From: an archaeon
GTDB lineage: Archaea; Iainarchaeota; Iainarchaeia; Iainarchaeales; CSSED10-239
Direction of reading: 5' to 3'
DNA: 32,000 nt
Assembly: GCA_035400625.1 (NCBI GenBank)
Contig: DAOMZT010000002.1
Coordinates: 170,792-202,791 of the forward strand
The position numbers and the translations under genes were made by a program. The notes under the pieces were generated by a model. The model worked only from the letters and a program-made list of their open reading frames with translations. It was not told where the DNA came from and did no database searches. Below are positions 1 through 16,734 of the stretch, piece after piece. Within the stretch, counting starts at the first letter, position 1. Each line of letters begins with the position of its first letter.

Positions 1-1
1 G

Positions 2-3000
2 ATTAAAGTTCACACTTGAGTTTCTATTTTTTATCAGTTCAATAATTAAATCTTCTGTATCTTCTGTTGATACTTTTATTCCAGGTTTTGGCAAATCCAC
101 ATACGAGGTGTTCAAATTTAGATTAAAAAATAAATTTGTTTTAAATGGGGCATTAAGGTCTAATCTTATTGGCTGATTATTATAATTTCCTGCATTAATT
201 ATATTATGATAACCACCTGTAACTGAGGCAATATCACTATCTTGTGTGGTATCTTCAGTTAAAGGAACTGATGGACCTTTTGGATCTTGTGGTGGCGTAG
301 AACCATTTCCATTTGGCAAATCCAATATTGAAATTCTTGTTTTTATTTCTTTATTTAAGTCTGACAAATATAATGGGATGTTATTCTCTGTATATATGTA
401 GTTGTTAATATCCTGATAATCTAAATATTGAGTAGGATTAGGATAAGGATCAGCAGCAATCAGCCATCCATAGACTTGATTTGTTCCTTTTATATAATAT
501 TTCTTTAGATCCTTTGTAAACTTAAAATTTCCATTGTAGGTATATTTTCCAATATTATAAACTATAGTGTTTCTTGAAGAAATTTCTGTTCCATTTTCTA
601 AGAACAATCTATAATTTGATTTTACTTGCTTAGATATTGTAACAGTGTTATTTGAAAGACCATAATTTGCAGGGAACAAGAAACTAAAATAAATATTGTG
701 TCCTAATTTTGTAAGTGGCAAAGATAAATTTTTATTTTCTAGCATTCCATTAGAATTTGTTGTTCCAAACACTATTGTTTGTGGAGAATTAACAACAGCT
801 GATATTTTAACTCCAGATATTGGACTACCAGATATATTTCTAACCCTAAAACTAATAATATTATCTCCTGCATATATATCATTATTTTCTGTTGTATCTC
901 CAGTAATAATTTCTATTATTACATTAGCATCTGTTGGATAATATGCTAAAACAGGAACAGAATACGGATTTAAACCAGAAATGTTTAGTATATCTGTAGT
1001 AATATTAGAATCTGTATTTAAATCATAACTTGTACTATCATTATTTGGCTGGTATAATGTGGCACTAGCCATACCAACATTGTGTATAAGATTGTTATTT
1101 TGATGATTATTTTGGTTGTTATTATGTTGATTAAATCCACTAGGCGTATTATTAATAAAGAAATCTGTTGCTGAAATTACTGAGCTGTGATCTATTTGGG
1201 TTGCTAGGGTTGCATCTATATCATTTATTGTATAATTTATTGCATTAATACCTGTTGCATTAATGTCTGTTTGAGTATTATTAGAATGATTTCTTTTCTT
1301 AAATTTATATGCATTATATATTAGATGATTATATGTATTTACTGAGTTTGCAACAACCGACCCATTTATTGTATTATTTTTCAAATATAATAATTTCTGA
1401 GAATAATAATAGTTCTTACCAATCTCTAATATATATTTGCTACCAAGTGGAGTTAATTTTTGACCAACTGTGTTTGTGGGTAAATTATAATCATAAATAT
1501 CATATAAGAACATATAATCAGAATTATTAAATGTTAATGCGCGACTGTGATAAGGACTATAGAAATACCCGTCAGGAACCATATCACATTCTTGCCAAGA
1601 AGTACTCAAATTAGGGCTCAACTTATATTCATTATCTTTTGTCTCTGTTAGCCCCTTATAATAAATTACATAATCAGAAAGATTTGTTATACCATTTTGG
1701 AATTTCACATCAACAAAGAATTCTATTTGTTCTGCAAGAGTGTCTGAAAAGTCAATTTTTACCCATTTAAAGCCAGAAGTTGATGCTGAACAATTTGTTT
1801 GAGAATGATCAATATCGTTATTTGCTAAGAAATGGGCAGGATCCCATACTGCCGTTTCTCCAGAGAAGTTACAGCCATATTCGTTTTCGCTATTAAATGC
1901 TATTACTTTTTCTAATCTTAAATAATCTGATGGTAAAGCAACTCTTTTCCCTGCCCTGACATAAGCATATGCACGATCTCTGTTCTCTTTTTTATTAGTT
2001 GTTAATTTAAACTTTAATTTAAAGGTCTTAGAATATTCTGTTGCTAGATTGATTATATTTTTATCAATATTTCCACTTTCATCATATATACCTAATAATT
2101 CAATATTAGAAAACGCTTCTGTTCTGGTATTTGAAAGAGCGATGGTGCGATAAACTTTTTGTCCAGGAATAAGTGTAATTAAGCTTGTTTGATATGTGGA
2201 TTTGCCATCTGCAGTAATTATTGCATATATGTTTTGAGAAAATTCATTAAATATATATTCTTTGTTAGAATCTTGAGAGGTTCCAGCCACAACATAGTTT
2301 GTTATTTCGTCTCCATTAGATTTAAAGAAATAAATATTATAATCAATTGTAGGTGTTACTTTAAGATTTAATATTGTTGCCTGATCTTCTAATTCCACAT
2401 CTAGTTCCATAAATTCATTAGCATCTAATCTCTCAGTTTGTGAAATGCCCTGTTCTGGACTTTTAATTGCATAGGCATAATATTTTCTACCAGACCTAAT
2501 AAATGAGAAATTACAATCTCCTGAACTATTTGTTATTTGTGGACCAGCAATTGGTATATCGTCGTCACCATCTCTGAAAATATATACACTTGCTCCAACT
2601 ACATTGTATGCGCTTCTAGAAACATTAACTCCAATTTTACCAGTATTAAGTTCAGATGAATATTCTAATGGCACAGTAATTGTTGCATTATTATCAAAAC
2701 TATTCAAATTTATAATGTCAGGGGCAAAATAACCATAATTTTCTGTATTTGTTACAGAAATTCTATAAGTTACTGAACTAGCAACTGGCAAAGAAAATGT
2801 TGCTTTATTAGTATCTTCTCTTGTGCCTACAGCTTTAACTAAATTTGTATCTGTTCTTTTTGTATATATTGTGATATCCCCCCTTATTTCTCTTTCAGTA
2901 TTGCCATTAGCATCTACTAAAACTACATTTAATGTCTTTCCACCAGTTGTTAATAAAACATTTCCTGTTGTATTATTATTTATTGATACTTGGTATGGTC

Positions 3001-4273
3001 CAAATCTATCTAATGTAGAAACATAACCTTCTTTACTTGCAGAAACTGTATATGCTCCTGGAGTTAGGTTAGTAAACACATAAGTTCCATAAATGGTTGT
3101 TGTTCCTGAAGAAACAAATATGTTTGATTCGTTTATTTGCGTTGTTGGATCATCAGGCCTATATAATTGTAAATACACATCTGGAATTGCTACTTGTGTG
3201 TTTTGATCCTTTACTGTTATTTCTAAGGTTCCATAGTTTTGTGCTATTGGTGTTAGCATAATTACATTACTTTCAGGAACCAATCTGTTTTGAATAGAAT
3301 TGTAAAATTCAGAATAAACGTCAACTCTTAAATCTCCACAACCAGCTGGAACACTAACAGATAATTGTCCTGTGCTTGTGCTTTTTGAACTAGGATCTGG
3401 TGTAGTGCCTGAATTTGCACAGCGTAAATTTACTCTTATTGGTTTTGTTGCTAAAAGTATATCATTTTCTTTAAAAACTAAATTTCTGGTTGTTGGGTTC
3501 ATTAGATGTAATTTTAAATTAGTGTCTATTTCTAATTTCACTAAAACTGAATTATTTCTGCCTTTAAGTTTTAGTTCTTTTGTTTGAGTATTATAAGATT
3601 CTTTTTCTACAATTAATTTAACATTTTTTTTCTTCCCAAAATCTTCAAAGATTGCTTCTCCAAAGACTCCTGTTTGAGATGTTTTGTTTATATCTCCAAT
3701 TGATAATATTGCTGTTGCTCCAGAAACTGGCATATCTAAAATATCAGTCACAGTAACTTCCAATACTGGTGATCCCATAAGACCACTAAAAATTCCTGAA
3801 AAGAATATTAACCAAATTAAAGCAAATATAAATATTATAAATAAAATAAAGCTAGGAAATACTTTGTCTATTTTATCTACTAATTTTCCTATTGGTATAA
3901 CTTTATTTATGCCATCGATCATAGAATAATAAAGATTTTCAAAAAAGAAATATATCTTCTTAAAGAAAGTAATTATTGGTAAAAAGATATTTTTCTTATC
4001 TTTTTTTGGAGCTACAAGTGATGGTTTTTCTTTAGTGTCTTCTTTTAAAGATTTAGAAATTTCTTTAAGAATCTTTTCTTTTTCTTCTGGTGTTGTTATT
4101 ATTTTTTCTTCTTTTTGTTTATTATCATATAATTTATCAACTACTCTTTTGGCTACATCCTTATCATAGCCATCAAAGATAATTAATTTCTCTAATTCCT
4201 CTTTTGAGAAGCGATTTTCTCTGCCTTTTAGCATATTGTAGATTTTCTCTACTTCTTCATCTTTTTCATTCAT
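2..4273 (-). CDS. Family A giant membrane-anchored surface protein, 3'-truncated by the window edge (>=1424 codons); colinear paralog of 8230..14169
   Basis: Absent from the ORF track because it has no stop inside the window. Hand translation starts at ATG 4271-4273, which is preceded in frame by TAG at 4277-4279, and reads MNEKDEEVEKIYNMLKGRENRF... I checked the frame codon by codon at 4202-4273, 1742-1860, 1982-2041 and 2-61 and saw no stop. No other minus-strand ORF is listed for 1..4279. The protein has a K/E-rich N-terminal tail of ~138 aa and one TM helix (VFPSFILFIIFIFALIWLIFFSGIF, ~3779..3859). CarboxypepD_reg-like units follow, e.g. LEITVKDQNTQVAIPDVYLQLYRP...IYGTYVFTNLTPGAYTVSASKEGY (about 3010..3240). 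GCNFSGETAVWDPAHFLANNDIDHSQTNCSASTSGFKWVKIDFSD aligns with GCRYHGDLESFDSNYFITNFESDYSFNNCIAGKYKWLEFDFSD of the 1979-aa protein. Confidence 0.85.
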   Translation of the reverse strand, partial: MNEKDEEVEKIYNMLKGRENRFSKEELEKLIIFDGYDKDVAKRVVDKLYDNKQKEEKIITTPEEKEKILKEISKSLKEDTKEKPSLVAPKKDKKNIFLPIITFFKKIYFFFENLYYSMIDGINKVIPIGKLVDKIDKVFPSFILFIIFIFALIWLIFFSGIFSGLMGSPVLEVTVTDILDMPVSGATAILSIGDINKTSQTGVFGEAIFEDFGKKKNVKLIVEKESYNTQTKELKLKGRNNSVLVKLEIDTNLKLHLMNPTTRNLVFKENDILLATKPIRVNLRCANSGTTPDPSSKSTSTGQLSVSVPAGCGDLRVDVYSEFYNSIQNRLVPESNVIMLTPIAQNYGTLEITVKDQNTQVAIPDVYLQLYRPDDPTTQINESNIFVSSGTTTIYGTYVFTNLTPGAYTVSASKEGYVSTLDRFGPYQVSINNNTTGNVLLTTGGKTLNVVLVDANGNTEREIRGDITIYTKRTDTNLVKAVGTREDTNKATFSLPVASSVTYRISVTNTENYGYFAPDIINLNSFDNNATITVPLEYSSELNTGKIGVNVSRSAYNVVGASVYIFRDGDDDIPIAGPQITNSSGDCNFSFIRSGRKYYAYAIKSPEQGISQTERLDANEFMELDVELEDQATILNLKVTPTIDYNIYFFKSNGDEITNYVVAGTSQDSNKEYIFNEFSQNIYAIITADGKSTYQTSLITLIPGQKVYRTIALSNTRTEAFSNIELLGIYDESGNIDKNIINLATEYSKTFKLKFKLTTNKKENRDRAYAYVRAGKRVALPSDYLRLEKVIAFNSENEYGCNFSGETAVWDPAHFLANNDIDHSQTNCSASTSGFKWVKIDFSDTLAEQIEFFVDVKFQNGITNLSDYVIYYKGLTETKDNEYKLSPNLSTSWQECDMVPDGYFYSPYHSRALTFNNSDYMFLYDIYDYNLPTNTVGQKLTPLGSKYILEIGKNYYYSQKLLYLKNNTINGSVVANSVNTYNHLIYNAYKFKKRNHSNNTQTDINATGINAINYTINDIDATLATQIDHSSVISATDFFINNTPSGFNQHNNNQNNHQNNNLIHNVGMASATLYQPNNDSTSYDLNTDSNITTDILNISGLNPYSVPVLAYYPTDANVIIEIITGDTTENNDIYAGDNIISFRVRNISGSPISGVKISAVVNSPQTIVFGTTNSNGMLENKNLSLPLTKLGHNIYFSFLFPANYGLSNNTVTISKQVKSNYRLFLENGTEISSRNTIVYNIGKYTYNGNFKFTKDLKKYYIKGTNQVYGWLIAADPYPNPTQYLDYQDINNYIYTENNIPLYLSDLNKEIKTRISILDLPNGNGSTPPQDPKGPSVPLTEDTTQDSDIASVTGGYHNIINAGNYNNQPIRLDLNAPFKTNLFFNLNLNTSYVDLPKPGIKVSTEDTEDLIIELIKNRNSSVNFN

Positions 4274-4279
4274 AATCTA

Positions 4280-6523
4280 TCATTTAATATTAAATAATGG
4301 TGTAAAGTATATTTCTTTTATTACTACATCGTTTTGTAATTTAAATTTTAAAAGATATCTTTGTGCTTGGCAAAACAATCTTACATCATCAATACCATAT
4401 CCTTTTTCTTCAGGGATATTAGTTAAATCAAAGTTTTCAGGGTTATAATGTAAAATGTCTTTTGCTATCTTATATTCTTTTATATTTGTTCCTGCAAATT
4501 GTTTTGAATCTGGCATTATATTTTCTCCAGTCTTTAGACTATAAACCACATAATTTTCATCACTTGGATATCCTGGTGGTTTAAACAAGCTTCCATCTGG
4601 ATTAACATAATAAATATTTAAATCAGTAATCACCCCTGCATTATCAGTATAAATTGTATATTCTGTGTCTGTTCTTAATGCGAAGTTGTTAAGTTCTAGG
4701 CTATCACATACAGGGCAATTAATCTCTTCTACATCAACACGCCCAACCTTACTTGATTCGGAATCAAAATCATTTTGTATTATTCCTAAATTTGCAAGGC
4801 GCAATGTTAAATTATCTGTTTTATATGATAAACTGGAATTTCCAGAAGATGCTGCATGACAACCATTAATATTTATTGCAGTTTCTTTTACTGGAACATA
4901 CTTAATTAATTTTAAAGATTTTGGTAAGAAACTACCGGATTTTAAATAATTAATATTTATGTTACCTATTTTTGGATCTATGTTTTGATTATTGCAACTT
5001 TCATCACAATGACAAAAAAGACTATTTATATTTTCTACATTTTGTTCATTTAATTCATTAGTTATGTTAAAGTTAAGAGATAGATTTTCTAATTTATCAA
5101 TATTTATTGAACCAATAGAGCCTGCCTTACCTTGTCCACGATTTTTATTTACATTAACTTTGCCACTCAATGCATAATAATAGAAATCTTTTTCATTTAT
5201 AAAATTAGATATATTATAATCACTTATTGAACCACCAACGCCACTTTCACCATACTTGCCCCCACCATCGCTTTTGTTGCCTCCCATCTCTCCATCTCCT
5301 GCAGATAAATCATATCTTAATATCCCTTGATTCACAATATTGTATTTTGTATTAGGTATATAAATAAATTTTATATGCCCCCCATAACCCCCTTTACCGC
5401 CATTTGCAGAATCAGCACCACATGTATTATTGCCACCATTACCACCTCTTCCACCATTACCTGATTTTATGGTGATATTAAATTCTGCTTGTTGCTGTTC
5501 ATCTTCTTTTAAATTTTCTAAATTATAAACTATAAAATTACTATGGCCTCCATTTCCTCCTGCACCACCTGATTTTGGAGAACCACCACAATTGCCTTTT
5601 TCGCCACTGCCTTTTGCACCATTTGCTCCATTTCCTGATTTTAAAAAAACATTAAATTTACCATAATTTTTGATAAACCCTTCTTGTATTATTAATACTG
5701 ATTGCCCACCATTACCCCCAACACCACCATTTTTATTATATCCTTTAGATCCTGCACTACCTTTTGCTCCATCGGCAGCAAATAAATTAATATCAACAGT
5801 TCCATAATTAATTATATTATATGCAGATAATATAGCCACACCTCCATGAATTCCATGATCTATAGGATCAGAATATGTTGTACTGTGATCATTTGGTTTT
5901 GTAGCAATTAGTGAAATATTTAAATCGGCATTTTTTTCTATAATTAAATTTTGAAAATTAAGTCTTGTTCCATGACCTACTCTATTAGGACTACCCACAT
6001 TTCCATCAGTATCTAATGCCCTTCTTTGTCTTTCTGTTATATTTATTAGTGTGTTGGTTAATATTTTAGTTTCATTAACATCCATACTTAGTATGCCAGG
6101 GATTGGGCTATATCCAACTAGCAACTCTTCATCATTATCCACTATAAAATTCAAAGTAATTGAATTGTTAGGATTACCAGAATCAAATCTTATTTCATCT
6201 ATCCCAGAAATTGTTATTTTTTCGTTATTCTCAGTAATTTTAAAATTCTGATTTTGAGAAATCCACAATATAAATTTTTTATTGTTACAATGCTCATTAT
6301 TAGAAATCCTCACAAAATTAAAATTAGGATTTATTATTTCTTCAGAATTGTTCAATTTTAAAAAATATTCATTTGATTGCGAAGCCAACGTTCCTTCATA
6401 CTCTACATCTTGTAGTACATTCTGCATATTTTGAAAACAATCAACAGCATAAATTGGAACAATCACTATTTGTATAAATATTAAAATCATTAAAATTTTT
6501 AATGTTGTTTTTATTTTTGACAT
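4280..6523 (-). CDS. Family B secreted Gly-rich repeat (predicted beta-solenoid) protein, 747 aa; function unknown
   Basis: Start is ATG 6521-6523 and stop is TGA 4280-4282, immediately followed by TAG at 4277-4279. Signal peptide is MSKIKTTLKILMILIFIQIVIVPIYA/VD. Residues ~187-490 form about six ~50-aa coils with loops such as GGVGGNGGQS, GGAGGNGGHS and GGKGGYGGH. The C-terminal third is colinear with the 690-aa ORF (INYLKSGSFLPKS/INYLSNGSYLPKT; CPVC/CPHC; LFCQAQRYLL/LFCYGQEYIL). Only 6 nt separate its stop from the next start. Confidence 0.9.
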   Translation of the reverse strand: MSKIKTTLKILMILIFIQIVIVPIYAVDCFQNMQNVLQDVEYEGTLASQSNEYFLKLNNSEEIINPNFNFVRISNNEHCNNKKFILWISQNQNFKITENNEKITISGIDEIRFDSGNPNNSITLNFIVDNDEELLVGYSPIPGILSMDVNETKILTNTLINITERQRRALDTDGNVGSPNRVGHGTRLNFQNLIIEKNADLNISLIATKPNDHSTTYSDPIDHGIHGGVAILSAYNIINYGTVDINLFAADGAKGSAGSKGYNKNGGVGGNGGQSVLIIQEGFIKNYGKFNVFLKSGNGANGAKGSGEKGNCGGSPKSGGAGGNGGHSNFIVYNLENLKEDEQQQAEFNITIKSGNGGRGGNGGNNTCGADSANGGKGGYGGHIKFIYIPNTKYNIVNQGILRYDLSAGDGEMGGNKSDGGGKYGESGVGGSISDYNISNFINEKDFYYYALSGKVNVNKNRGQGKAGSIGSINIDKLENLSLNFNITNELNEQNVENINSLFCHCDESCNNQNIDPKIGNININYLKSGSFLPKSLKLIKYVPVKETAININGCHAASSGNSSLSYKTDNLTLRLANLGIIQNDFDSESSKVGRVDVEEINCPVCDSLELNNFALRTDTEYTIYTDNAGVITDLNIYYVNPDGSLFKPPGYPSDENYVVYSLKTGENIMPDSKQFAGTNIKEYKIAKDILHYNPENFDLTNIPEEKGYGIDDVRLFCQAQRYLLKFKLQNDVVIKEIYFTPLFNIK
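5054..5965 (-). repeat. Protein-level tandem coils (~50 aa each) with Gly-rich loops in the 747-aa family B protein
   Basis: Residues ~187-490 read as successive units: RLNFQNLIIEKNADLNISL.. / AILSAYNIINYGTVDINLFAADGAKGSAGSKGYNKNGGVGGNGGQS / VLIIQEGFIKNYGKFNVFLKSGNGANGAKGSGEKGNCGGSPKSGGAGGNGGHS / NFIVYN..EFNITIKSGNGGRGGNGGNNTCGADSANGGKGGYGGH / IKFIYIPNTKYNIVNQGILRYDLSAGDGEMGGNKSDGGGKYGESGVGGS / ISDYNISNFINEKDFYYYALSGKVNVNKNRGQGKAGSIGS / INIDKLENLSLNFNITNE. The Gly codons create local GC-rich islands on the plus strand (runs of cc). Confidence 0.8.
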
Positions 6524-6537
6524 TTTTTATCTTTCTA

Positions 6538-7941
6538 TTATTTATGTATTTTAAAAGGGTATTCTAAAGTAATATCAGGATACCCCATATCTTGATTACT
6601 ATTTAACTTAAATCTAAATAAATACGAATCTAAAAGGTTAGTATCTATTGATTGATCATATAAAAATAATTTAAAGAAAATATTTTCGGTTTGGAATATA
6701 TTAGAAACCATGTGATTTAAATTTTTTGTGTTATATAACCCTGCATTACCAGCAGTATCTAATGAAACATCTAGTGGATTATAAGTAATTGCAGAATTAA
6801 TTGTTCCAAAAATTATTGGTGTTGATGTAATATTTGAATCACTGGTAAACAGATATTCTGAAATTTGATTAGATACGCTAATTGGCGAACAACTCTTGTT
6901 TACTTTATTTATATGTGTTACGCCAGTATTTTGTGTATTTAAATCAATTAAATTACCCTCTGGCCTTACATAACTTAAATTACATATTTTATAATTTATA
7001 TTACTTGGCAGAGATATTGGGCCACATGTTGAAAGATATAAATTCCCATAATTATTTGCATTAATTATTTGAGTTGGCAAATTTCCGGTAATAGATTTAA
7101 AATGGAAATTACATGTATTATTCAGATAAATTGTATTATCTACTTTTGTTGAACAATTTAAATTTATTGTGCCATTATTATCTACTTGCTCAAATGAGAT
7201 AATATCTGCAAAATAATCTGTATTTAAATTATATGTTTGTTGATTAGGTGTTTGCTCCTCATTTTCTTCATCTTCTTCTAAATAGTACTTTAATGAATAA
7301 TAATAGTTGCATTCTTGTTCATAACCTACATAATTTTTATTATTTATAATATTTAATGTACCTGTATTTTTTATTTCAATTCTATTAAATAAAATATTGC
7401 TTTCAGGCACATAAGAATATAAATATCCATTAATATAATATTCGCCTAAACACGCATTTTTACTAATATTTACATCTAATTTGTTTCCTAAAATTAAATT
7501 ATTTACATTTCTAAAATCAATTTGAGTATCAGTTAAATTGCCTCTATCTATTTTTATTGTTGTAAATTCATTAATTTTTATAAGATTAAAATCAGAAAAC
7601 ATTATATTTATTTTATTAATATCAGGGTTTAAAATAAAACAATCAGAGAGTGTAGTATCAAAAGTTACACAAGAAACATTAAAATTTGCATTTTGATTTA
7701 TCACTAAATTTATTCCAGATCTGCTCGGTCTTATTTCACTCCCAACAATATTATAGTCTCCTCCATTTAAAATACAATTACCTGTTTGTGAATTATAATT
7801 ACAGGTTGCAATACCGGTTTGAGAATTATACAAACCCATTATGTCTACATTATCTGAAAAAACGAAACCAGAAATAGATATACTTATAAGTATTATAAAT
7901 AGTAAGATTATTCCTTTTTTTGAGTGATTTGTATTCTCCAT
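6538..7941 (-). CDS. Family C secreted Asn-rich protein, 467 aa; function unknown
   Basis: Start is ATG 7939-7941 with GGTGA 9 nt upstream. Stop is TAA 6538-6540, 14 nt before the next start. N-terminal hydrophobic signal is KKGIILLFIILISISISGFVFS/DN. The last ~115 aa align with the mature 16327..16734 product (STPIIFGTI/TYPIIFGNI; YLFRFKL..LEYPFKI/DIFRFYF..LTFPFKL). Confidence 0.88.
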   Translation of the reverse strand: MENTNHSKKGIILLFIILISISISGFVFSDNVDIMGLYNSQTGIATCNYNSQTGNCILNGGDYNIVGSEIRPSRSGINLVINQNANFNVSCVTFDTTLSDCFILNPDINKINIMFSDFNLIKINEFTTIKIDRGNLTDTQIDFRNVNNLILGNKLDVNISKNACLGEYYINGYLYSYVPESNILFNRIEIKNTGTLNIINNKNYVGYEQECNYYYSLKYYLEEDEENEEQTPNQQTYNLNTDYFADIISFEQVDNNGTINLNCSTKVDNTIYLNNTCNFHFKSITGNLPTQIINANNYGNLYLSTCGPISLPSNINYKICNLSYVRPEGNLIDLNTQNTGVTHINKVNKSCSPISVSNQISEYLFTSDSNITSTPIIFGTINSAITYNPLDVSLDTAGNAGLYNTKNLNHMVSNIFQTENIFFKLFLYDQSIDTNLLDSYLFRFKLNSNQDMGYPDITLEYPFKIHK

Positions 7942-8229: not shown

Positions 8230-11200
8230 TTAATTATTGTAATTGGTTTCTATTTGGTTTCTATTACTTCGTGTAATTTTTATCTTATCTGAAACCCATT
8301 TGATCTTTGAACTTGATAGAGTATTTGAGATACATGCGTTCCCATCTTTTACTTGGTCTAACATTTGATTTATTGAGTAAATGTCTGGAACTCTTGAGAC
8401 TAGAGCAAGTTCTGTTGTGCCTTCTAAACTACTCAAACCATATAGTCTTGACTCAACATTATTATCTAAATCTGATAATGTTAATTTAATATCTAAATAA
8501 TCTACATTTACAGGCAAATAAATCATTGATTCTAATAGATATTTCTCATCTAAATTGTTTCCAAATTTGTCTTTTGTAAGTTCGTGTCTTAAATAGTTTG
8601 CATGTGACCCAAAGACAGCTATATCATCCATTGCATTATTATAATTTGAATCAGAGAATAATTTCCATTTGAATAAATTGTTTGTGCTTATAGGGAATTG
8701 ATTATTAACCATTAATTTATAGTTAAAACTCTTATCTTTTATGCCATTTACTCTTGCAAACACATTTATTGGTCTTGAAGGAGTAAAGTTAAAAACTATG
8801 TTTTTCTTTTCTGAACCAGATGTATTATCTACTGCTAAATCTAATAAATTACCATTTGTATTTAAAACATCAGTTACTTGCCAATTTACAAGATAGTTGC
8901 TTGGATAATTTGCAGTAATATTTGTTACTCCTGAACAATCAGAGGTACAATTTTCTGCAACCCCATATAATTTTATTGATGTTGCAGATGGTTCTGTTAC
9001 TAACAAATCAGAATATTCATAATTTCCTACAATTGTTGAACCATAACCTACTCTATGTGCCTTGTCATTTACTACTCCAAAGTCCCCATCTATTGGAATA
9101 TAATAAAACAGATTGTTTTTATTTAATGGAATATTTTGAACCAATTCTAGGTTAATATTAAGATCCTTTGTAAAAGCAGGATCAAAATCATTAACAACAA
9201 TTTTGTATTTTCCGACTTCTTTTGTTGGATTGTTGTTTGGCGTTCTTTTAGTTATTGTGATTTCTTTATCGTGGTCAGAATCCAAATATTTTTCTGAAAA
9301 TGCAGAAGAAATACTATGTGTAATAAATTGATCATAATGTCCCCTAAAGTCCTCTAACAAGTCTTCTGATTCTATGCCATCATACATCAAATAGATATGA
9401 TAATCTTTGCTTGTGTCATAATCAGAAGAGCTAATTAATGTAAATATTGAGTATAGTGCTTGAACAGAATCACAATGTGTTTTATCAGCATCATATTCCT
9501 CTTTATCATCTATACAAAGAGTTTTCCAATTTAATGTTTGGTCTCCCCAATTATATAATACTTTTGGAAGAGCAGATTCTCCAACACTACAAGCTTCTTG
9601 TTCTTCAGTATCGCAAATACCTAAAATAAAATAATCGCCCCCTTGTGCTTGTCCACCTACTCCCATACAAAAATGACCAGTAACCCCTATATTGTTTAAT
9701 ACAGTTACTGGAGTTTCAGGTATATATGTAACAATTATTGTTATTGGCTTTATCTCTGTTACTTGCACATTATTTACAGTTAGATAGAAATTCATTTGTT
9801 TATTATAGGTTTCCTCTAAATCTGGAATAGTCATTAGATTGCTGTAATTCCCGTCTATTTTTATTGGCACCTCTATGTGGTTTTGAGGTGTGATAGGCAT
9901 TGGTATATCAATTGAAGCAGATTCATAGGCAAGAGGATTGGAATTTAAAAGCTCTATTCCTGTTAATTCTAAACTATAGCTTTTAGTGTTGTTTTTTATA
10001 TTATACACCATTGTTGAACTACAATTGTCTTCTCCCTTACAAGCAATGGTTAAGTGCGTTCCTGGCAAAGACAATTGGTAACTTTTGTTTTTTGGATATA
10101 ATGTTATTTTTATTGGAACCTCATATATAAAATTCTCTGTTTGATTACCAATCTTTATATTTATGTTTGCATCTTTTTCTATAATTTCTGTAAAATTAAT
10201 ATTCTTAAGAACAAATGTAAAATTAAAATTACCAACCAATCTATTTTGAGAAGAATTGTTTGTGTGTGCCTGAGTAAAGTTAATATAATTAGAGATGTCT
10301 TCTCCAACAATCTGTGTATCTAAGATATCATAGTTTATTGGGTCGGTAAATAAAAGATTAAGATCATAACTTATTGAAATATTATCAATAACTTCTTTTA
10401 TTAGCTCTATTCCTGCCCCTTCTTCACCCTCATAAAAACCATTAACATTAGTTGTTGTAAACTTAGAAAAATCCTGTATATCTAATATTTTAATTCTTGC
10501 TGAAGAGTTTGTGTCTTTGTAAAGTGTAATGTCTGGCATTTCTCCTGTATTTTTCACAGTAAATATGTTATTATAACTAAAATTAATATCTTGAATATCT
10601 GTGTCAGGATCAATATGTAACCCTGCAGAAATCACATTGCTTTGGTTTAGGTCTTTTGGTAAATTATTAACAGCCATTAAATTCTGATTAATTATTTCTT
10701 CTAAAAACACCTCGTTGTCAGAAACAGAAACCGCTTCTAGTTTTACTACTCTATTTGTGTTATTTTTAATAATATAGTCTTTTACCAAATCTGTTGCTTT
10801 TTTCTTACCACCAATGTTTGTTAAAAGAATATCATATCTTAATCTGTTGTTGTTTGTTATTAATTTATTGTCAAGATCATAAATATTTATTCCTGTGCCA
10901 ATAACTTGAGAAAAGGTTAGTTCGTTATTTGGAAGATTAGAGCCTGGTATTGTAAAAATAAAGGTAATGGTTTTTCCTGAGTCTTCTAAAGGTATAAATA
11001 TCTCTGTATTTAATGTGTTGTTTGTTATTTCTCCTAACTCTGTAGCAATTGTTTGACCAGAGACTATATATTTTACAGCTATGTTATTTTCATAGTTGCC
11101 TGTTTTGTTCTTTAAACTAATATTAAGATCATTAGAACCAACATAAATTTTTCCATCTGTTGCATTGGAAGTAACAACTGGAACATATGTGCTCTCAGAA

Positions 11201-14169
11201 TATGATAAAATATTTGTTGAGGCTGTTGCTAAAGATGAATTGTCTTTCTTAAATAATTGTGTTCTTAATGTTGGCTGATCAGTTAATGAAAAGAAGTCTA
11301 TTGGTTTGCCAATTAAATTGTTAACAAAGTAATAACCAATACTTGTGGTCTTTGAAGATATGTTAACAGAAGTATTATTATCTATTGTTTGTATGATTGG
11401 ATTTGTTGATGTTTTATCTTTAAAATAACTGTTTGTAAAAACATAGTTGTTATTTGTGTTTTGAGTGTCTGTAATTATGTCTCCTGTTCTGTTGGTATCA
11501 GAGAACTGTATGAAGCTTAAACTATAATTATAGTCCTTTCCAATATAAAGTATATAATCTGAACCAAATTTAGTTAGTTCTGAATTTCGGTCAAATAACT
11601 TAATTACATAAGAATAATTGGAATTGTCAAAAGGTATTGCTTCTACTTGGGTTGGTGCATAGAAATATCCTTCTGGCCTTATTGACCATTCATTCCAGTT
11701 TGAAAGGTTTGGAGAAAAGGAAAATGTTTCTAAATCTGAATTTAATGATCTGTAATAGATTTTGTAATTGTCAATGGTTGTAATTTCGTTTTTGAATTTT
11801 ACATTTACAGAATATTCTATAATGTTTGCAGTAACATCACTAAAATCAAACTCTAGCCATTTGTATTTTCCTGCTATGCAGTTGTTAAAAGAATAATCAG
11901 ATTCAAAGTTTGTAATAAAATAGTTGCTATCAAAAGATTCTAGATCTCCATGATATCTACAGCCTGTTCTTATCTCTGTGTCTTTTGGAACAAACAAGTC
12001 TGTGTTTGTTAAATAAATAAAGTCTGCATTTTCTGTTAGATATCTTCCTGCTTTTATAAATGCTTTCTTTATTACGTTTGTTCTGTCTGAGCCAAATACA
12101 GTCTTAAATTTTAACTTATATTCTTTTGTTAAATCGTTATTTCCTGAAAAGGTTAAATTGTCTATCTTTATTGTGCCTGTGGAATCATAAAGACCTAAAA
12201 AGGAGGTGGCTGTTTGAATTTCTGATATAGTAGGGAAGGTTATTTCTTTGTAAGCTACCTGTCCAGGAAATAGTGAGATAAGGTCTGTTTGATATAATAG
12301 GTCGTCTTTTTCAATAGTCAAATATATTCTTGAACAATCATCACCACAATTAAACACAAAGGTTTTGTTTGTATCTTCAGTAACATTTGTAGCAATTACA
12401 TTTTCTGTAGGTATTTGCTCTCCAGAGACTTCAAAAAAAGAAATGTTATAATCTTGATTTGGTGTTATTTTAAGATTAAGGGTTTTAGATTGATTACCTA
12501 AAGACACATTTAATTCTAAAACATCATTACTATCAAGCTCTTGTGCTGGCAGAGAATCACCATCTGCACTTTCGTTTCTTAATATAGCATAAGCGTAATA
12601 TTCTCTTTTGCTTTTTACTAAATCAAAATTTGCATCTCCGCTTGAATTTGTAGTTTTTGGATTTTCTGGATTGTATAGCACGTATTCATCATCTAACTCA
12701 TAAAATAAATAAACTAATGCATTTGCTCTCTTATAGCCGTTTTTTGTAACATTAACATTTATGCTCCCACTATTTAATGAGGACAAATATTCTAAAGGTA
12801 TTTCTATGGTTGTGTTAGTGTCTGCAGAAAGATTATTGACATCTACTGGTGTTGGTGGCAAATAGCCATTATCTTCTGTGTTTGATACAATTATTCTATA
12901 ATTATTATTTGCAACTAGAGCAAATGTTGTTTGGTTCACATCTCTTCTAGTAGTAATTAAACTTGAGACATTCTGGTCTCTTTTATAAACTGAGATATTG
13001 CCAGTAACTGGAACACTAGTGTTTTGATCTTTTAATTTAACTATTAGATTTGTAAGTTTTCCTATGGTACAGCCATTACCATTAGGATTAGGGGTAACTA
13101 AACCTGTTAATAATGGACTATTACAATCAATTTTTCCATCTTTACAAAAAGGAGCATATATTGGGTTTGAACAGTTAATGTTTGCTAAATCTGATGCTGT
13201 AATTAAAGTAATGTTTGCAGTTGTTATGTTATTATTAACAATATTATAAGGCCCTAGCTTTGGAAGGCTTATATATCCTGTTTTATCTATTGATAAAAGA
13301 TAATTTGATTGAGGTGCATTAAACTTATATTTACCATAAACATCTGTTGTTCCTGTGCTATATGTGACATCTGATTCGTTTGTTGGTGTTTGTAAATCAT
13401 CTACATTATGTAGTCTTAGATTAGCATATGGTACTGCTTGTCCGATTATGTCTTTTACAGTAACTTCTAATGTGCCTGTATTTGTATTAACTCTTGTTAG
13501 TTCAACTATGTTATCTTCGCTAACATTTCTGTCAGTTATTAGTTCATAATTTGAAGATACCACACTTACTAACAAAAAACCACAATAGCCAGGCTGTAAG
13601 ACATTTGTTCTTCCGTTTGTTACTGTTGTTGTTCTAGGTTCTGGTATTTTTTCAGAATTAGAACATTTAAAAGTAACATTAAGATTATCAGTAACAACCA
13701 CATCATAGCTTTTAAATATTATTTCTCTGCGTCTCTCAGAAGAGGGCCCCTTAAATTCTCCAGAGGTTGTGTCCATTTCAAGAGTTATTGTTTCTTCTTT
13801 TAGTTTTTTATCTAGTTTTATTTGTTTTGTTGTAGGAAAATAATTTTCTTTTGTTGCTTTTATTTCTAGATCTTTAAATTTTAGATCTTTAAACTCAGTA
13901 TAGCCAAAGGCATCTGTGCTTTGTGTTATTTCGTTATTTATTGTTACGCTTACTCCACCTAATGAAAAGTTCTGTTCATCTACCACATATACTTCTAGTG
14001 TTTTTTTGCTTCCACTAAATAATAATATTAAGATAATTATCAAGACAATTACCGCAATAATAATAAATATTATTTTTGTAAATTTCTTTTTTGGTTTTTC
14101 TGTGGTCTGAGGATTGTTCTGTTCTACTGTTTGTTTAATTTCGTTTATTAGTTTTTCTTGTTCGCTCAT
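8230..14169 (-). CDS. Family A giant membrane-anchored surface protein, 1979 aa (beta-sandwich repeat array plus C-terminal head module)
   Basis: Start is ATG 14167-14169 and stop is TAA 8230-8232. A polar 30-aa N-tail is followed by a TM helix (KIIFIIIAVIVLIIILILLFSG, ~14011..14079). CarboxypepD_reg/PEGA-type units follow (LEVYVVDEQNFSLGGVSVTINN..FGYTEFKDL..IKATKENY; LEVTVKDIIGQAVPYANLRLHN..TDVYGKYKFNAPQSNYLLSIDKTGY). Later units resemble PapD/CARDB-like sandwiches (STMVYNIKNNTKSYSLELTG). The head module runs from ALPKVLYNW (9573 downward). The sequence is Asn/Thr-rich with many N-x-S/T sequons. Confidence 0.95.
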   Translation of the reverse strand: MSEQEKLINEIKQTVEQNNPQTTEKPKKKFTKIIFIIIAVIVLIIILILLFSGSKKTLEVYVVDEQNFSLGGVSVTINNEITQSTDAFGYTEFKDLKFKDLEIKATKENYFPTTKQIKLDKKLKEETITLEMDTTSGEFKGPSSERRREIIFKSYDVVVTDNLNVTFKCSNSEKIPEPRTTTVTNGRTNVLQPGYCGFLLVSVVSSNYELITDRNVSEDNIVELTRVNTNTGTLEVTVKDIIGQAVPYANLRLHNVDDLQTPTNESDVTYSTGTTDVYGKYKFNAPQSNYLLSIDKTGYISLPKLGPYNIVNNNITTANITLITASDLANINCSNPIYAPFCKDGKIDCNSPLLTGLVTPNPNGNGCTIGKLTNLIVKLKDQNTSVPVTGNISVYKRDQNVSSLITTRRDVNQTTFALVANNNYRIIVSNTEDNGYLPPTPVDVNNLSADTNTTIEIPLEYLSSLNSGSINVNVTKNGYKRANALVYLFYELDDEYVLYNPENPKTTNSSGDANFDLVKSKREYYAYAILRNESADGDSLPAQELDSNDVLELNVSLGNQSKTLNLKITPNQDYNISFFEVSGEQIPTENVIATNVTEDTNKTFVFNCGDDCSRIYLTIEKDDLLYQTDLISLFPGQVAYKEITFPTISEIQTATSFLGLYDSTGTIKIDNLTFSGNNDLTKEYKLKFKTVFGSDRTNVIKKAFIKAGRYLTENADFIYLTNTDLFVPKDTEIRTGCRYHGDLESFDSNYFITNFESDYSFNNCIAGKYKWLEFDFSDVTANIIEYSVNVKFKNEITTIDNYKIYYRSLNSDLETFSFSPNLSNWNEWSIRPEGYFYAPTQVEAIPFDNSNYSYVIKLFDRNSELTKFGSDYILYIGKDYNYSLSFIQFSDTNRTGDIITDTQNTNNNYVFTNSYFKDKTSTNPIIQTIDNNTSVNISSKTTSIGYYFVNNLIGKPIDFFSLTDQPTLRTQLFKKDNSSLATASTNILSYSESTYVPVVTSNATDGKIYVGSNDLNISLKNKTGNYENNIAVKYIVSGQTIATELGEITNNTLNTEIFIPLEDSGKTITFIFTIPGSNLPNNELTFSQVIGTGINIYDLDNKLITNNNRLRYDILLTNIGGKKKATDLVKDYIIKNNTNRVVKLEAVSVSDNEVFLEEIINQNLMAVNNLPKDLNQSNVISAGLHIDPDTDIQDINFSYNNIFTVKNTGEMPDITLYKDTNSSARIKILDIQDFSKFTTTNVNGFYEGEEGAGIELIKEVIDNISISYDLNLLFTDPINYDILDTQIVGEDISNYINFTQAHTNNSSQNRLVGNFNFTFVLKNINFTEIIEKDANINIKIGNQTENFIYEVPIKITLYPKNKSYQLSLPGTHLTIACKGEDNCSSTMVYNIKNNTKSYSLELTGIELLNSNPLAYESASIDIPMPITPQNHIEVPIKIDGNYSNLMTIPDLEETYNKQMNFYLTVNNVQVTEIKPITIIVTYIPETPVTVLNNIGVTGHFCMGVGGQAQGGDYFILGICDTEEQEACSVGESALPKVLYNWGDQTLNWKTLCIDDKEEYDADKTHCDSVQALYSIFTLISSSDYDTSKDYHIYLMYDGIESEDLLEDFRGHYDQFITHSISSAFSEKYLDSDHDKEITITKRTPNNNPTKEVGKYKIVVNDFDPAFTKDLNINLELVQNIPLNKNNLFYYIPIDGDFGVVNDKAHRVGYGSTIVGNYEYSDLLVTEPSATSIKLYGVAENCTSDCSGVTNITANYPSNYLVNWQVTDVLNTNGNLLDLAVDNTSGSEKKNIVFNFTPSRPINVFARVNGIKDKSFNYKLMVNNQFPISTNNLFKWKLFSDSNYNNAMDDIAVFGSHANYLRHELTKDKFGNNLDEKYLLESMIYLPVNVDYLDIKLTLSDLDNNVESRLYGLSSLEGTTELALVSRVPDIYSINQMLDQVKDGNACISNTLSSSKIKWVSDKIKITRSNRNQIETNYNN

Positions 14170-14183
14170 AATTAATCTTTTTT

Positions 14184-16256
14184 CTAGTCACTAAATAATT
14201 CTCTTAATGGTACAAATGGGAAATTAAAATTTTTTATAGTACCACCATCAGAAGTAATCTTTCCATCTAAAATATATTCTTGGCCATAACAGAACAGATA
14301 ATCTTCTTGGTTTAGTTCATCAATATCATCTTCTGGAGTATGGCTATAATAAATTAAATCTTCTGGTTTTATTTTATATTCATAATTGTTTGTCTTTTGG
14401 TTAAAAACACCAGAAATTGGATTTTTATTTGTATAAACAGGTAATTGTTTATTATCTGTTCTTTTTGTATAATATTTTGATTGATTTAAAGGATTGGAAT
14501 AATAAACTTTTAAATCTCCAACATTAATTGTTCCGTCAATATTAGAAAAAAGGCTATAATCTCTTGTATATCTGTTTTGAGAATCATCAAGAGGCATAAC
14601 TTCACAATGTGGGCAATAATTAGAGGTTAAATCAAATTCTGAATTTAACATTGAAATAACATCTGAGTTTGTTGCTTCTATCCTTATATATTCTTTAATA
14701 TCAAAATCAACTTTTGTTGGATTAATATAACATCCCTTTATGCTAATATTGTTATTAAAATATTCATCATCAACTATTGGTGTGCCTGCAGAAATAGTTT
14801 TTGGAAGATAAGAGCCATTACTTAAATAGTTTATTTTTATATCTGATAATTTTAGATTTAAATAAGGTAATGGCAAGATATTGCCACCATTATCTTCTCC
14901 ATCATAACCATTATTACTTGTTGCAATAACAGCCAAATCATATTGATGATTAGTAAAATTAAAATTAGATGTGATTTCAAAACCATTACTTGATTTATTC
15001 TCTAAAAAATCAATAGTAATATCTCCTATTTTTCCTGGTATTCCAAAAGATGCAGAATTCTCTGGTGCACAAGTTCCATCTGGACTAATATCAACATCTC
15101 CTAATGCACCATTTTTTATATTTAATTTAAATTCGGAGGAATTTAATTTATTTAAAAAAGTATTAATTTTAATATCACTTATATTCCCGCCATGACCTCC
15201 ATCTCCATTATGTCCATCTTTGCAATGATCATCATAATTTTCTGCACGTTGCACACCGCCCGAACCGCCATCTCCTGCGGTTGCATTAAATATTATACTC
15301 TTATAATTAGTTATTTTGTCTATATTTGAAATAAATATATTCCCTGCGTTGCCTCCATTACCCCCATTATATGTTTCATCTTGTGGGCCTTCATCTTTTT
15401 CACTATAGCCTCCTTTTCCGCCTTTCCCTGTTTCTAAACTGATTTTTAAATTATTATAATTTTCTATTTGTTTAATACTAAAGTTTAAATCTCCCGAATT
15501 ATCTCCATCACCCGCACTAAAACCACCATCATGAATAGTTCCTGTATCCCCCCCTGAAAAAGATTGCCCGTCTCCACCATTCCCTGTTTTTAAATCAATA
15601 TCAATAAAACCATAATTCTGAATATTATTAATTTTTAAATTTACATATCCACTTCGAGTTCCATGTTTTGATTCTAAGAATGCATAATAATTATTTCCAA
15701 AAGCATCTACTCCATAACCAAAACTTCGATTTCCTATTTTGCCATCATTGCTTTTTAAATTTAAATTTAGATTTGCATTAGGATAAACAAATATTGATTC
15801 TATATTTACATCGTGAGATTTATCAGTTGCTTGCAATGGGGAATATGTTTTAATATCAAGTTTTTTTTCAGAATTTACAATAATATTTGGTAACGTTATA
15901 GATTTTGCATCTTCATATATCGTTATTTTTGAATTATTGTTTGCAATAAGATTTATGTTTGTATAATCAAAAAAATTAAAATTAAAATAATCTGATTTCA
16001 ATAAGAAATTATATCCATTTGTATAAAAATTAATTTTATAATCATTACAACTTGTTAAACTAAATGGAGGTGCTGTGGTTTTTACTAATACAGAATCATT
16101 AATATTACAATTACATTCTAATTTATCATGATTACAGTCACAACTTACTTTGCCAGTCAATGGAGAATCATTATAAATTTCAACATTACAATTAGCAAAC
16201 ACTCCATTTGTTGCCAATATTATTATTAAAAATATAATTGCATATTTTATTTTCAT
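14184..16256 (-). CDS. Family B secreted Gly-rich repeat (predicted beta-solenoid) protein, 690 aa; function unknown
   Basis: Start is ATG 16254-16256 and stop is TAG 14184-14186, 14 nt before the 1979-aa start. Signal peptide is MKIKYAIIFLIIILATNGVFA/NC. Coils occupy residues ~198-436 (YVNLKINNIQNYGFIDIDLKTGNGGDG..; LNFSIKQIENYNNLKISLETGKGGKGG..; IFISNIDKITNYKSIIFNATAGDGGSGG..GDGGHGGN). It is a paralog of 4280..6523. Confidence 0.9.
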   Translation of the reverse strand: MKIKYAIIFLIIILATNGVFANCNVEIYNDSPLTGKVSCDCNHDKLECNCNINDSVLVKTTAPPFSLTSCNDYKINFYTNGYNFLLKSDYFNFNFFDYTNINLIANNNSKITIYEDAKSITLPNIIVNSEKKLDIKTYSPLQATDKSHDVNIESIFVYPNANLNLNLKSNDGKIGNRSFGYGVDAFGNNYYAFLESKHGTRSGYVNLKINNIQNYGFIDIDLKTGNGGDGQSFSGGDTGTIHDGGFSAGDGDNSGDLNFSIKQIENYNNLKISLETGKGGKGGYSEKDEGPQDETYNGGNGGNAGNIFISNIDKITNYKSIIFNATAGDGGSGGVQRAENYDDHCKDGHNGDGGHGGNISDIKINTFLNKLNSSEFKLNIKNGALGDVDISPDGTCAPENSASFGIPGKIGDITIDFLENKSSNGFEITSNFNFTNHQYDLAVIATSNNGYDGEDNGGNILPLPYLNLKLSDIKINYLSNGSYLPKTISAGTPIVDDEYFNNNISIKGCYINPTKVDFDIKEYIRIEATNSDVISMLNSEFDLTSNYCPHCEVMPLDDSQNRYTRDYSLFSNIDGTINVGDLKVYYSNPLNQSKYYTKRTDNKQLPVYTNKNPISGVFNQKTNNYEYKIKPEDLIYYSHTPEDDIDELNQEDYLFCYGQEYILDGKITSDGGTIKNFNFPFVPLRELFSD
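14949..15665 (-). repeat. Protein-level tandem coils (~50 aa each) with Gly-rich loops in the 690-aa family B protein
   Basis: Residues ~198-436 show the same strand / N.G turn / strand / Gly-loop periodicity as 5054..5965. The units are listed in the CDS evidence for 14184..16256. Confidence 0.8.
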
Positions 16257-16326: not shown

Positions 16327-16734
16327 TTATGATAACTTAAATGGAAAAGTTAATGATAAGTTCTGATCTGGATTTATCTTTAGATTTGTTTCAATAAAGT
16401 AAAATCTAAAGATGTCTTTTGCAGTTAGTGATTGAAATTTGTTTTGATTTAGATTACCAATATAAAAAAATACATTTGTTTCTTTTTTAACACACGAAGA
16501 TGTAAGCTCTATCTCTAAGTCTTCTTGAGATGGCTTAAATACACTTGGAGAGAAGTTGTCCCCACAAACAATTTTTATTCCATCTGGTTCTTTAATATTT
16601 CCAAATATTATTGGATAGGTCTTTATGTTCTCTTTAGGGAAAGCTATCCAATCTGTATTTGTATCTTCTGCAAAAACATTATTTAGAAATATAACTAAAG
16701 AAAGAACAATTATTAATTTTTGAATATTTTTCAT
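16327..16734 (-). CDS. Family C small secreted protein (~135 aa from the first ATG); function unknown
   Basis: The ORF-track start at 16764 is TTG (plus-strand caa, 16762-16764) and would overlap the upstream gene by 20 nt. The first ATG (16732-16734) gives MKNIQKLIIVLSLVIFLNNVFA/EDT, a canonical signal peptide. It leaves a 10-nt gap after the upstream stop at 16745-16747. Stop is TAA 16327-16329. The product is homologous to the C-terminal domain of the 467-aa protein. Confidence 0.8.
   Translation of the reverse strand: MKNIQKLIIVLSLVIFLNNVFAEDTNTDWIAFPKENIKTYPIIFGNIKEPDGIKIVCGDNFSPSVFKPSQEDLEIELTSSCVKKETNVFFYIGNLNQNKFQSLTAKDIFRFYFIETNLKINPDQNLSLTFPFKLS

Follow-up and report, generated by a model that had tools for sequence, protein, structure and literature searches.

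What fold is adopted by a secreted archaeal protein whose chain passes, every 50 residues or so, from a pair of beta strands into glycine-rich sequence and back? The question is raised by a 32,000-nucleotide stretch of the archaeal contig DAOMZT010000002.1 (positions 170,792 to 202,791; hereafter the window), which encodes two such proteins. An initial annotation had marked window positions 5054 to 5965 and 14949 to 15665 as runs of ~50-residue coils with flexible GG.GGNGG loops, probably a novel beta-solenoid. These positions correspond to residues 187-490 of a protein that we call B1 and to residues 198-436 of a second, B2. We find that the tandem ~50-residue strand/turn/strand/glycine repeats are real in both proteins. 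The repeat is probably a new hybrid in which beta-solenoid stacking is combined with glycine-rich polyglycine II (PGII) bundling; at the level of the unit, it resembles the Obg fold.

Two paralogous surface proteins

The B1 gene (4280-6523, minus strand) is an open reading frame (ORF) of 747 amino acids, arranged as a signal peptide (residues 1-26), an N-terminal beta domain, the repeat domain and a cysteine-containing C-terminal domain. The B2 gene (14184-16256, minus strand; 690 amino acids) has the same architecture, and 28% identity across ~490 residues (E = 2e-20) makes the two proteins paralogs. An invariant Cys comes after the hydrophobic, signal-like helix with which both proteins start; in the AlphaFold2 (AF2) model of B1, this helix spans residues 2-20 and the rest of the protein is all-beta. 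B1 and B2 are Sec-exported surface proteins of an uncultured archaeon, which we infer to be probably a member of the DPANN.

Close homologs are scarce: word-indexed searches returned 11 clusters for B1 and 20 for B2. The B1 gene was examined on 15 metagenome contigs. Among 1.84 billion representatives, 43 matches were found at E ≤ 1e-30, mostly full-length with some fragments. None of these close relatives has a descriptive name: those that are named at all are 'hypothetical protein', and those of known source come from 'archaeon' metagenome-assembled genomes (MAGs), some on contigs that reach 0.8 Mb.

Glycine makes up 20% of the repeat region in B1 and 18% in B2, against 5% in the remainder of each protein. 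At the DNA level, GC-skew troughs of -0.40 (5001-6000) and -0.31 (15001-16000), with a slight rise in GC, coincide with these Gly-rich repeats. The troughs arise because the GGN codons lie on the minus strand, and are thus an effect of coding composition, not a signal of replication or of a mobile element.

Anatomy of the repeat unit

Local blastp self-comparison gave no off-diagonal repeat alignments, so hidden Markov models (HMMs) were needed to detect the units. For each B protein, the unit HMM was built from units of the other subfamily. The real regions scored 47.5 and 66.8 bits, whereas the maxima over 200 composition-preserving shuffles were -1.9 and -1.7. These cross-subfamily HMMs delimit four canonical units in B1 (residues 236-273, 278-327, 344-384 and 395-433) and three in B2 (206-255, 258-307 and 310-359), in each case with degenerate caps. 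The autocorrelation of glycine peaks at lags of 50-56 residues in B1 and 52-55 in B2. TRF found no long-period tandem repeat in the DNA; the units are therefore old and diverged.

Strand pairs recur in the predicted structures. The B1 repeat domain (5054-5974, minus strand; residues 184-490) contains seven stacked strand pairs, assigned by DSSP on the AF2 model to residues 184-206, 230-248, 275-295, 328-353, 384-407, 436-452 and 473-490, and the strands within a pair are joined by a two-residue turn. Paired (GGX)n segments occur in units 2 to 5. The B2 repeat domain (14949-15896, minus strand; residues 121-436) has eight strand pairs in a model of the domain alone, and its three canonical Gly-bearing units (15174-15644, minus strand; residues 205-361) recur with a 52-residue period. 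The count of five to seven consecutive units in the initial annotation is reasonable once the Gly-poor caps are included.

The B1 units, all on the minus strand, illustrate how the elements follow one another. Unit 2 (5699-5836; residues 230-275) reads AILSAYNIINYG, TVDINLF and AADGAKGSA, then a loop and NGGVGGNGGQ. Unit 3 (5540-5698; residues 276-328; independent E = 1.6e-9) is the best formed, with a strand, an NYG turn, a second strand, SGNGANGAKG, a Cys/Pro loop and SGGAGGNGGH. Unit 4 (5372-5539; residues 329-384) carries an acidic insertion in the turn, followed by SGNGGRGGNG, a loop and NGGKGGYGGH. Unit 5 (5225-5371; residues 385-433) has AGDGEMGGN, a loop and YGESGVGGS.

From 106 units cut from a 28-member family alignment, we derived a consensus of ~50 positions: [LF]x[IV]xx[IL]xN[YN]G, then x[LFI]x[IL]x[LIV]x[SAT], G[ND]GGxGG, a variable loop and GGxGGxGGx[IVL]. 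The number of units is also conserved, with exactly four canonical units in 40 of the 48 full-length family members. The HMMs, the shuffles and the AF2 strand pairs thus agree with the regular two-strand units first described for this locus. The unit pattern proposed there (h.h..h.N, N.G, h.h.h..G) matches the consensus, and the two loop strings quoted are present at B1 residue 297 and B2 residue 276.

The glycine segments

Within a unit, glycines recur every third residue. Autocorrelation is strong at lag 3 in both proteins (B1, z = 6.9; B2, z = 5.0) and at lag 6 in B1 (z = 4.7). The triplet is GGX, in runs of (GGX)2-3, and not the G-X-Y of collagen. The initial annotation had stated that there is no G-X-Y triplet periodicity and that the proteins are not collagen-like; the second part stands, with runs of only two to three triplets and no Pfam Collagen match, but a local GGX triplet periodicity does exist.

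Conservation separates the parts of the unit. In an alignment of 48 sequences, the Gly columns are the most conserved class in the family (0.87), followed by strands (0.48), X positions (0.41) and the loops between the motifs (0.35). The X position is most often N (22%), S (16%) or D (13%). Variability and indels are confined to the short stretch that separates the two Gly motifs of a unit, and large insertions are sited only there, after B1 residues 260, 311, 369 and 419. No spacer lies between strand 2 and the first Gly motif, nor between the second Gly motif and strand 1 of the next unit.

Structure prediction, the check suggested in the initial annotation, gave ordered models with repeating strands. 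For full-length B1, the mean predicted local distance difference test (pLDDT) is 87.7 and the predicted TM-score (pTM) is 0.86, and the five models agree (pLDDT 82.7-87.7). The B2 domain alone (residues 120-441) reproduces the pattern (pLDDT 86.6; pTM 0.86), with lower values only in mid-loop blocks (64-77). DSSP assigns neither helix nor strand to the B1 Gly segments, where 10-residue means of pLDDT are 84-98. Classic DSSP has no assignment for the polyproline II (PPII) helix, so a blank at ordered Gly segments is what a PPII or PGII conformation is expected to give. Synthetic (Pro-Gly-Gly)n and (Ala-Gly-Gly)n, which are likewise two-thirds glycine, assemble into double-layered PPII sheets in which the third residue points outward (bioRxiv 10.1101/2023.11.25.568672). 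The Gly stretches of B1 and B2 look more like ordered PGII helices than like floppy loops.

Family and fold searches

Neither B1, B2, their neighbors nor their distant relatives gave a Pfam or NCBIfam match above threshold over the repeat. RTX (HemolysinCabind), collagen and Pmp families were not matched in Pfam even at E ≤ 1, and there were no Pfam matches to PbH1 or pectate-lyase families. The ALK/LTK glycine-rich domain (PF12810) is absent from the Pfam, PDB profile and Foldseek match lists.

Fold comparison with Foldseek gave no match at E ≤ 0.001 in the PDB (whole B1 model and B2 domain model) or in the viral database BFVD, in which the whole B1 model had no significant match. The top PDB match to the B2 domain model was 7jjv, a springtail antifreeze protein of nine PPII helices (E = 6.5e-3, probability 0.51). 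It was followed by SufB/SufD and then by many right-handed parallel beta-helices (TM-score ≤ 0.28), with pectate lyases, Ag43, tailspikes and related proteins at E ≥ 0.4 and TM-score ≤ 0.23. The whole B1 model retrieved only marginal Ig-like matches, probably owing to its flanking beta domains. The antifreeze and beta-helix matches therefore describe a model that is PPII-bundle-like and solenoid-like locally, without a global neighbor. No account of a PGII solenoid, or of glycine-rich surface proteins in DPANN, emerged from a literature search. The earlier suggestion of a novel repeat domain stands: the repeat falls outside every family tested, and none of the solved structures or curated families covered by the searches matches its combination of strands with probable polyglycine helices.

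A recurrent sequence resemblance is to Obg. GTP1_OBG (PF01018) was the single recurrent Pfam match, found in 5 of 28 members, B1 not among them, and its best score was 20.7 bits against a cut-off of 27. With the whole-family profile, a search of the PDB at E ≤ 10 returned six chains, four of them bacterial Obg and two Obg-family mitochondrial GTPases. With the 50-position unit profile, four Obg chains came first (E = 0.07-0.11), ahead of two unrelated chains with weaker scores. All of these profile matches lie at E ≥ 0.067. The Obg matches all fall on residues ~7-44, as in KVYVKGGDGGNG...GGPAGGDGGKGGDV. Aligned by hhalign with three Obg fragments, the unit profile reached 88.4% probability (E = 2.8e-6) over 38 columns, whereas reversed Obg fragments, which keep composition and GGX phasing, gave 10% over 6 columns. 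Because the reversed control fails, the Obg match depends on direction and register and is more than a likeness of composition. In ObgE, the matched segment comprises a base strand, a PPII helix, loop 1, a second PPII helix and a strand, and the tip loops make functional contacts (PMC4028186). The six PPII helices of Obg jut out together, and the loops at their tip touch the ribosome (PMC4028186, PMC9545696).

A proposed architecture and its alternatives

We propose that the repeat domain is a hybrid beta-solenoid/PGII bilayer scaffold, with indel-rich loops along one edge, that serves in surface attachment together with the giant proteins encoded next to it; we put the chances of this composite reading at about even. 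The central ~300-residue domain would be a stack, fixed in size, of ~50-residue coils. Each canonical coil would run through strand 1, an Asn-x-Gly turn, strand 2, (GGX)~3, the variable loop and a second (GGX)~3 before the next coil begins with its own strand 1. Both Gly segments would form short PGII (PPII-type) helices that lead out and back, like helices 1 and 2 of the Obg fold. Stacked over successive coils, these helices would build a PGII sheet of two layers as an extension of the two sheets of the beta stack.

Each coil would thereby be flattened into two layers, one half a beta-arch with a hydrophobic core and the other half a PGII hairpin with a Gly-Gly core. We favor this flattened coil because two-thirds-Gly sequences form PPII double sheets and because there are no spacers at the Gly motifs. 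Seven to eight stacked coils may then form a flat, rigid plate with the Asn-Gly turns on one edge and the indel-rich loops on the other. The beta-solenoid of the initial annotation would survive here in its stacking, given that the weak Foldseek matches after the top one are mostly SufB/SufD and parallel beta-helices, but not in its view of the Gly half as flexible loops.

Several points weigh against this reading. Both models come from one method run on shallow alignments (28 and 21 sequences), and AF2 may over-regularise repeats. The PPII geometry of the Gly segments, the way in which the strands pair (parallel or antiparallel) and the placing of the Gly segments with respect to the sheets are proposals that go further than the DSSP assignments and pLDDT values. 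Every structural match is weak, including the best. The Obg sequence matches lie below curated thresholds (in the PDB searches at E ~0.07-0.8), and the three Obg fragments used with hhalign were picked from those same sub-threshold matches. The first B2 unit is Gly-poorer and lower-scoring than the others. A joint of only two residues links the strands of a unit, as is commoner in antiparallel hairpins than in solenoid arcs. Finally, the function, with the loops as a binding surface, partnership with the giant proteins and an adhesin role, is something that we infer from analogy and gene order.

The strand joint bears most directly on a second arrangement, in which the strand hairpins would form one antiparallel meander sheet and the PGII hairpins would pack on one of its faces. 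The two-residue N-Y-G turns are typical of hairpins, and antiparallel arrangement is the rule in PPII bundles (bioRxiv 10.1101/2023.11.25.568672). We nevertheless consider the meander unlikely, though it is the most serious competitor: the weak Foldseek matches after the top one are nearly all to SufB/SufD and parallel beta-helices or solenoids and not to meander sheets, the conserved turn Asn resembles the Asn ladders of solenoids, and no spacers flank the Gly motifs.

The domain could also be an ordinary two-strand beta-solenoid with long flexible Gly/Asn/Lys/Ser loops that act as an elastic or sticky fringe or bind cations or glycans, much as first suggested. The loops are indeed rich in G, N, S, D and K, DSSP is irregular there, and pLDDT drops in the B2 mid-loops. 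We regard this explanation as improbable in view of the high conservation of the Gly columns, their strict GGX phasing, the confident prediction of the Gly motifs (84-98), a top fold match that is a PPII bundle and the in-register match to the PPII element of Obg.

It is more doubtful still that the order is a prediction artefact, that is, a partly disordered low-complexity segment regularised by AF2. The shallow alignments and the lack of a strong structural neighbor would fit such an artefact, but the five B1 models agree and the domain-only run on the paralog reproduces the pattern. Furthermore, single glycines are under purifying selection and the number of units is fixed across 48 proteins that diverge to ~27% identity, neither of which would be expected in disordered linkers.

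A Ca2+-binding RTX-like beta-roll or a collagen- or Pmp-like repeat, to which a secreted protein with Gly- and Asp/Asn-rich motifs might be assigned, is effectively refuted, because tandem GGxGxDxUx nonapeptides, long G-X-Y runs and GGAI are all absent and the unit is ~50 residues long, not 9. The initial annotation had already set Pmp repeats aside, correctly so: GGAI is absent from both proteins, and FxxN occurs once and seven times in Asn-rich sequence.

Gene neighborhood and a possible role

The window has ~29% GC and no tRNA genes. Nearly its whole length is taken up by ORFs for large proteins without Pfam families, and every sizeable ORF lies on the minus strand. These genes form a single co-directional block that encodes at least 10 proteins, secreted or anchored in the membrane, and Pfam annotates almost nothing in it. 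Gaps of 6-14 nucleotides separate the B1 and B2 genes from their neighbors. A giant protein of 1979 amino acids (8230-14169, minus strand), with an N-terminal transmembrane helix, starts 14 nucleotides past the stop codon of B2, of which it is the probable partner. A second giant (1-4270, minus strand), cut by the window edge and 2178 amino acids long in full-length contigs, lies directly downstream of B1 and is its probable partner. The order B2, 1979-residue giant, 467-residue protein (~480 residues), B1 and 2178-residue giant is kept in archaeal MAGs at 41-56% identity (loci L005 and L007). The three giants of the block (1979, 2493 and 2178 residues) contain CarboxypepD_reg/SpaA-like domains, and those of 1979 and 2178 residues have an N-terminal transmembrane helix. 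This conserved order, together with the domain content of the giants, points to joint action of each B protein and its downstream giant at the cell surface.

We propose that each B protein and the membrane-anchored giant whose gene directly follows belong to an apparatus for attachment at the cell surface. The invariant glycines would build the scaffold, and the variable loops would form a binding edge, as do the loops of phage gp38 and the loop tip of Obg. By the logic of these two, we therefore propose an adhesin or recognition subunit with a variable binding ridge. B1 and B2 would thus probably be binding subunits that work with the adjacent giants.

Other features of the block were noted alongside. 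The proposal that the 467-residue and 145-residue neighbors are Gly-less relatives of family B, or share its C-terminal module, was unsupported. By eye, the last ~25 residues are alike (..[KR]FKL.. followed by ..[FY]P[FL][KV]..) in B1 (4283-4360), the 467-residue ORF (6541-6620), the 145-residue ORF (16330-16400) and B2 (14187-14260). This likeness might represent a shared docking strand; homology is unsupported by BLASTP and hhalign. The 145-residue ORF, which has a TTG start as listed, overlaps the 3' end of the gene for the 2493-residue giant by 20 nucleotides (16745-16764), and an internal ATG (MKNIQK...) just upstream of a hydrophobic, signal-like segment may be its real start.

A 984-residue protein (28680-31634, minus strand) and the 2493-residue giant (16745-24226, minus strand) have in common a C-terminal module of ~740 residues (27% identity, E = 1e-44). 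No Pfam family covers this module, whose last residues form a conserved tail (...C-V-N-x-D-N-x(4)-E-x-[FY]-[YW]-N-P-K-x-I). A 638-residue protein (24322-26238, minus strand) and an edge-cut ORF (31652-31999, minus strand) share a Cys-rich C-terminal segment of ~50 residues (C..GCVC......A[RK]C; 40% identity, E = 4e-10). Downstream of the surface-protein block on the source contigs (L001 20018-20287; 22224 onward) are genes for a bacterial-type HU (Bac_DNA_binding), HisRS and a Fic-domain protein; an HU gene is a little unexpected in an archaeon.

Wider distribution and significance

Beyond the close relatives, ~60 weaker matches (E from 1e-13 to 1e-3) cover the repeat region only. Several of these carry the strand-strand-GGxGGxGG-loop-GGxGGxGG unit at a median spacing of 51 residues. 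Bacterial carriers include Oscillospiraceae hypothetical proteins and fusions to MACPF, thiol-activated cytolysin, Flg_new/LRR_5 and PEP-CTERM (P0075, P0076, P0078, P0071, P0066, P0068 and P0091); the repeat region of these bacterial proteins has no Pfam or NCBIfam annotation. One candidate was rejected as a family unit: a cyanobacterial 'filamentous hemagglutinin' match (P0073) contains an ordinary FHA-type repeat with single GGN motifs. Because bacterial proteins join the unit to MACPF and CDC domains, it may be a targeting module of general use.

We put forward, as a tentative and rather less secure proposal, that these proteins represent an undescribed architecture of half beta-arch/half PGII-hairpin coils, which stacks an Obg-like element into a rigid plate with a ridge of hypervariable loops. 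DPANN-type archaea would use this plate, always paired with giant anchored proteins, for recognition of host cells, and bacteria would have recruited it independently for surface proteins and for pore-forming toxins (the MACPF and cholesterol-dependent cytolysin fusions). Alternation of strands and PGII helices in every coil would, if true, be a new and modular way to build PPII/PGII assemblies. Such folded Gly-rich assemblies are known from a handful of unrelated proteins and are of interest for protein design. The repeats would also, if related, be the first possible relatives of the orphan Obg fold outside the GTPase. To our knowledge, how small-genome archaea attach to their hosts is largely unknown. 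The B family lies in a conserved block of giant, unannotated surface proteins of small-genome archaea, and offers a candidate binding subunit with a definable variable edge; the question of archaeal host attachment therefore becomes testable.

Comparison with known systems

Folded Gly-rich PPII/PGII assemblies have been listed in springtail antifreezes, Obg, aceto(phe)none carboxylases, phage gp38 and ALK/LTK (bioRxiv 10.1101/2023.11.25.568672). The B repeat shares with this class of bundles a triplet periodicity of glycine and conserved glycines with a variable, polar third position. In the springtail (snow-flea) antifreeze protein 7jjv, the nearest structural neighbor of the repeat-domain model, short Gly-rich PPII helices with a triplet periodicity pack in two layers, as is proposed for the B repeat. 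Antifreeze proteins differ in consisting of PPII helices only, with no beta strands, in their length of ~80-130 residues and in ice binding, and their TM-scores are 0.13 and 0.28. There is no reason to expect ice binding by the B proteins; two samples that carry the gene are JGI metagenomes, which we take to be from anaerobic digesters.

The PGRS domains of mycobacterial PE_PGRS proteins, for which AlphaFold predicts a PGII 'sail', likewise contain (GGX)n runs predicted as PGII bilayers. They differ from the B repeat in being long, near-pure GGA/GGN arrays without regular strand pairs and in being restricted to mycobacteria, whereas B proteins have no PE domain. Right-handed parallel beta-helices and SufB/SufD solenoids share with B proteins the stacked repeats and a conserved Asn at the turn. 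Their coil is ~18-25 residues long, whereas that of B is ~50, and half of the B coil is Gly-rich and non-beta.

With the Obg fold (PF01018; PDB 1lnz, 1udx, 5m04), the B unit shares, in register, a strand, a G-x-GG-x-G segment, a loop, a GG-x-GG-x-GG segment and a strand; the Gly segments are PPII helices that project from a beta base in Obg and putative PPII helices in B. Obg is a single eight-stranded barrel with six PPII helices, cytoplasmic and fused to a GTPase, whereas B proteins repeat the element three to four times in tandem within seven to eight strand pairs, are secreted and have no GTPase domain. B proteins thus resemble Obg in this unit-level element, but they have neither the single barrel with its GTPase nor a score that reaches the family's gathering threshold. 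The B repeat and the Obg fold may or may not share an ancestor.

The functional model that we favor is gp38 of T2-type phages, in which conserved Gly-rich motifs form a PGII sandwich and protruding hypervariable loops bind the receptor (PMC12892980). No gp38 match was found in the PDB profile searches or by Foldseek in the PDB and BFVD, so that the resemblance is one of logic only. As in B proteins, conserved Gly motifs alternate with indel-rich loops in T2/S16-type gp38 (PDB 6f45), which also has a beta-helix subdomain. The beta-helix of gp38 forms one subdomain and its PGII sandwich another, whereas B proteins would alternate strands and glycine helices in every repeat.

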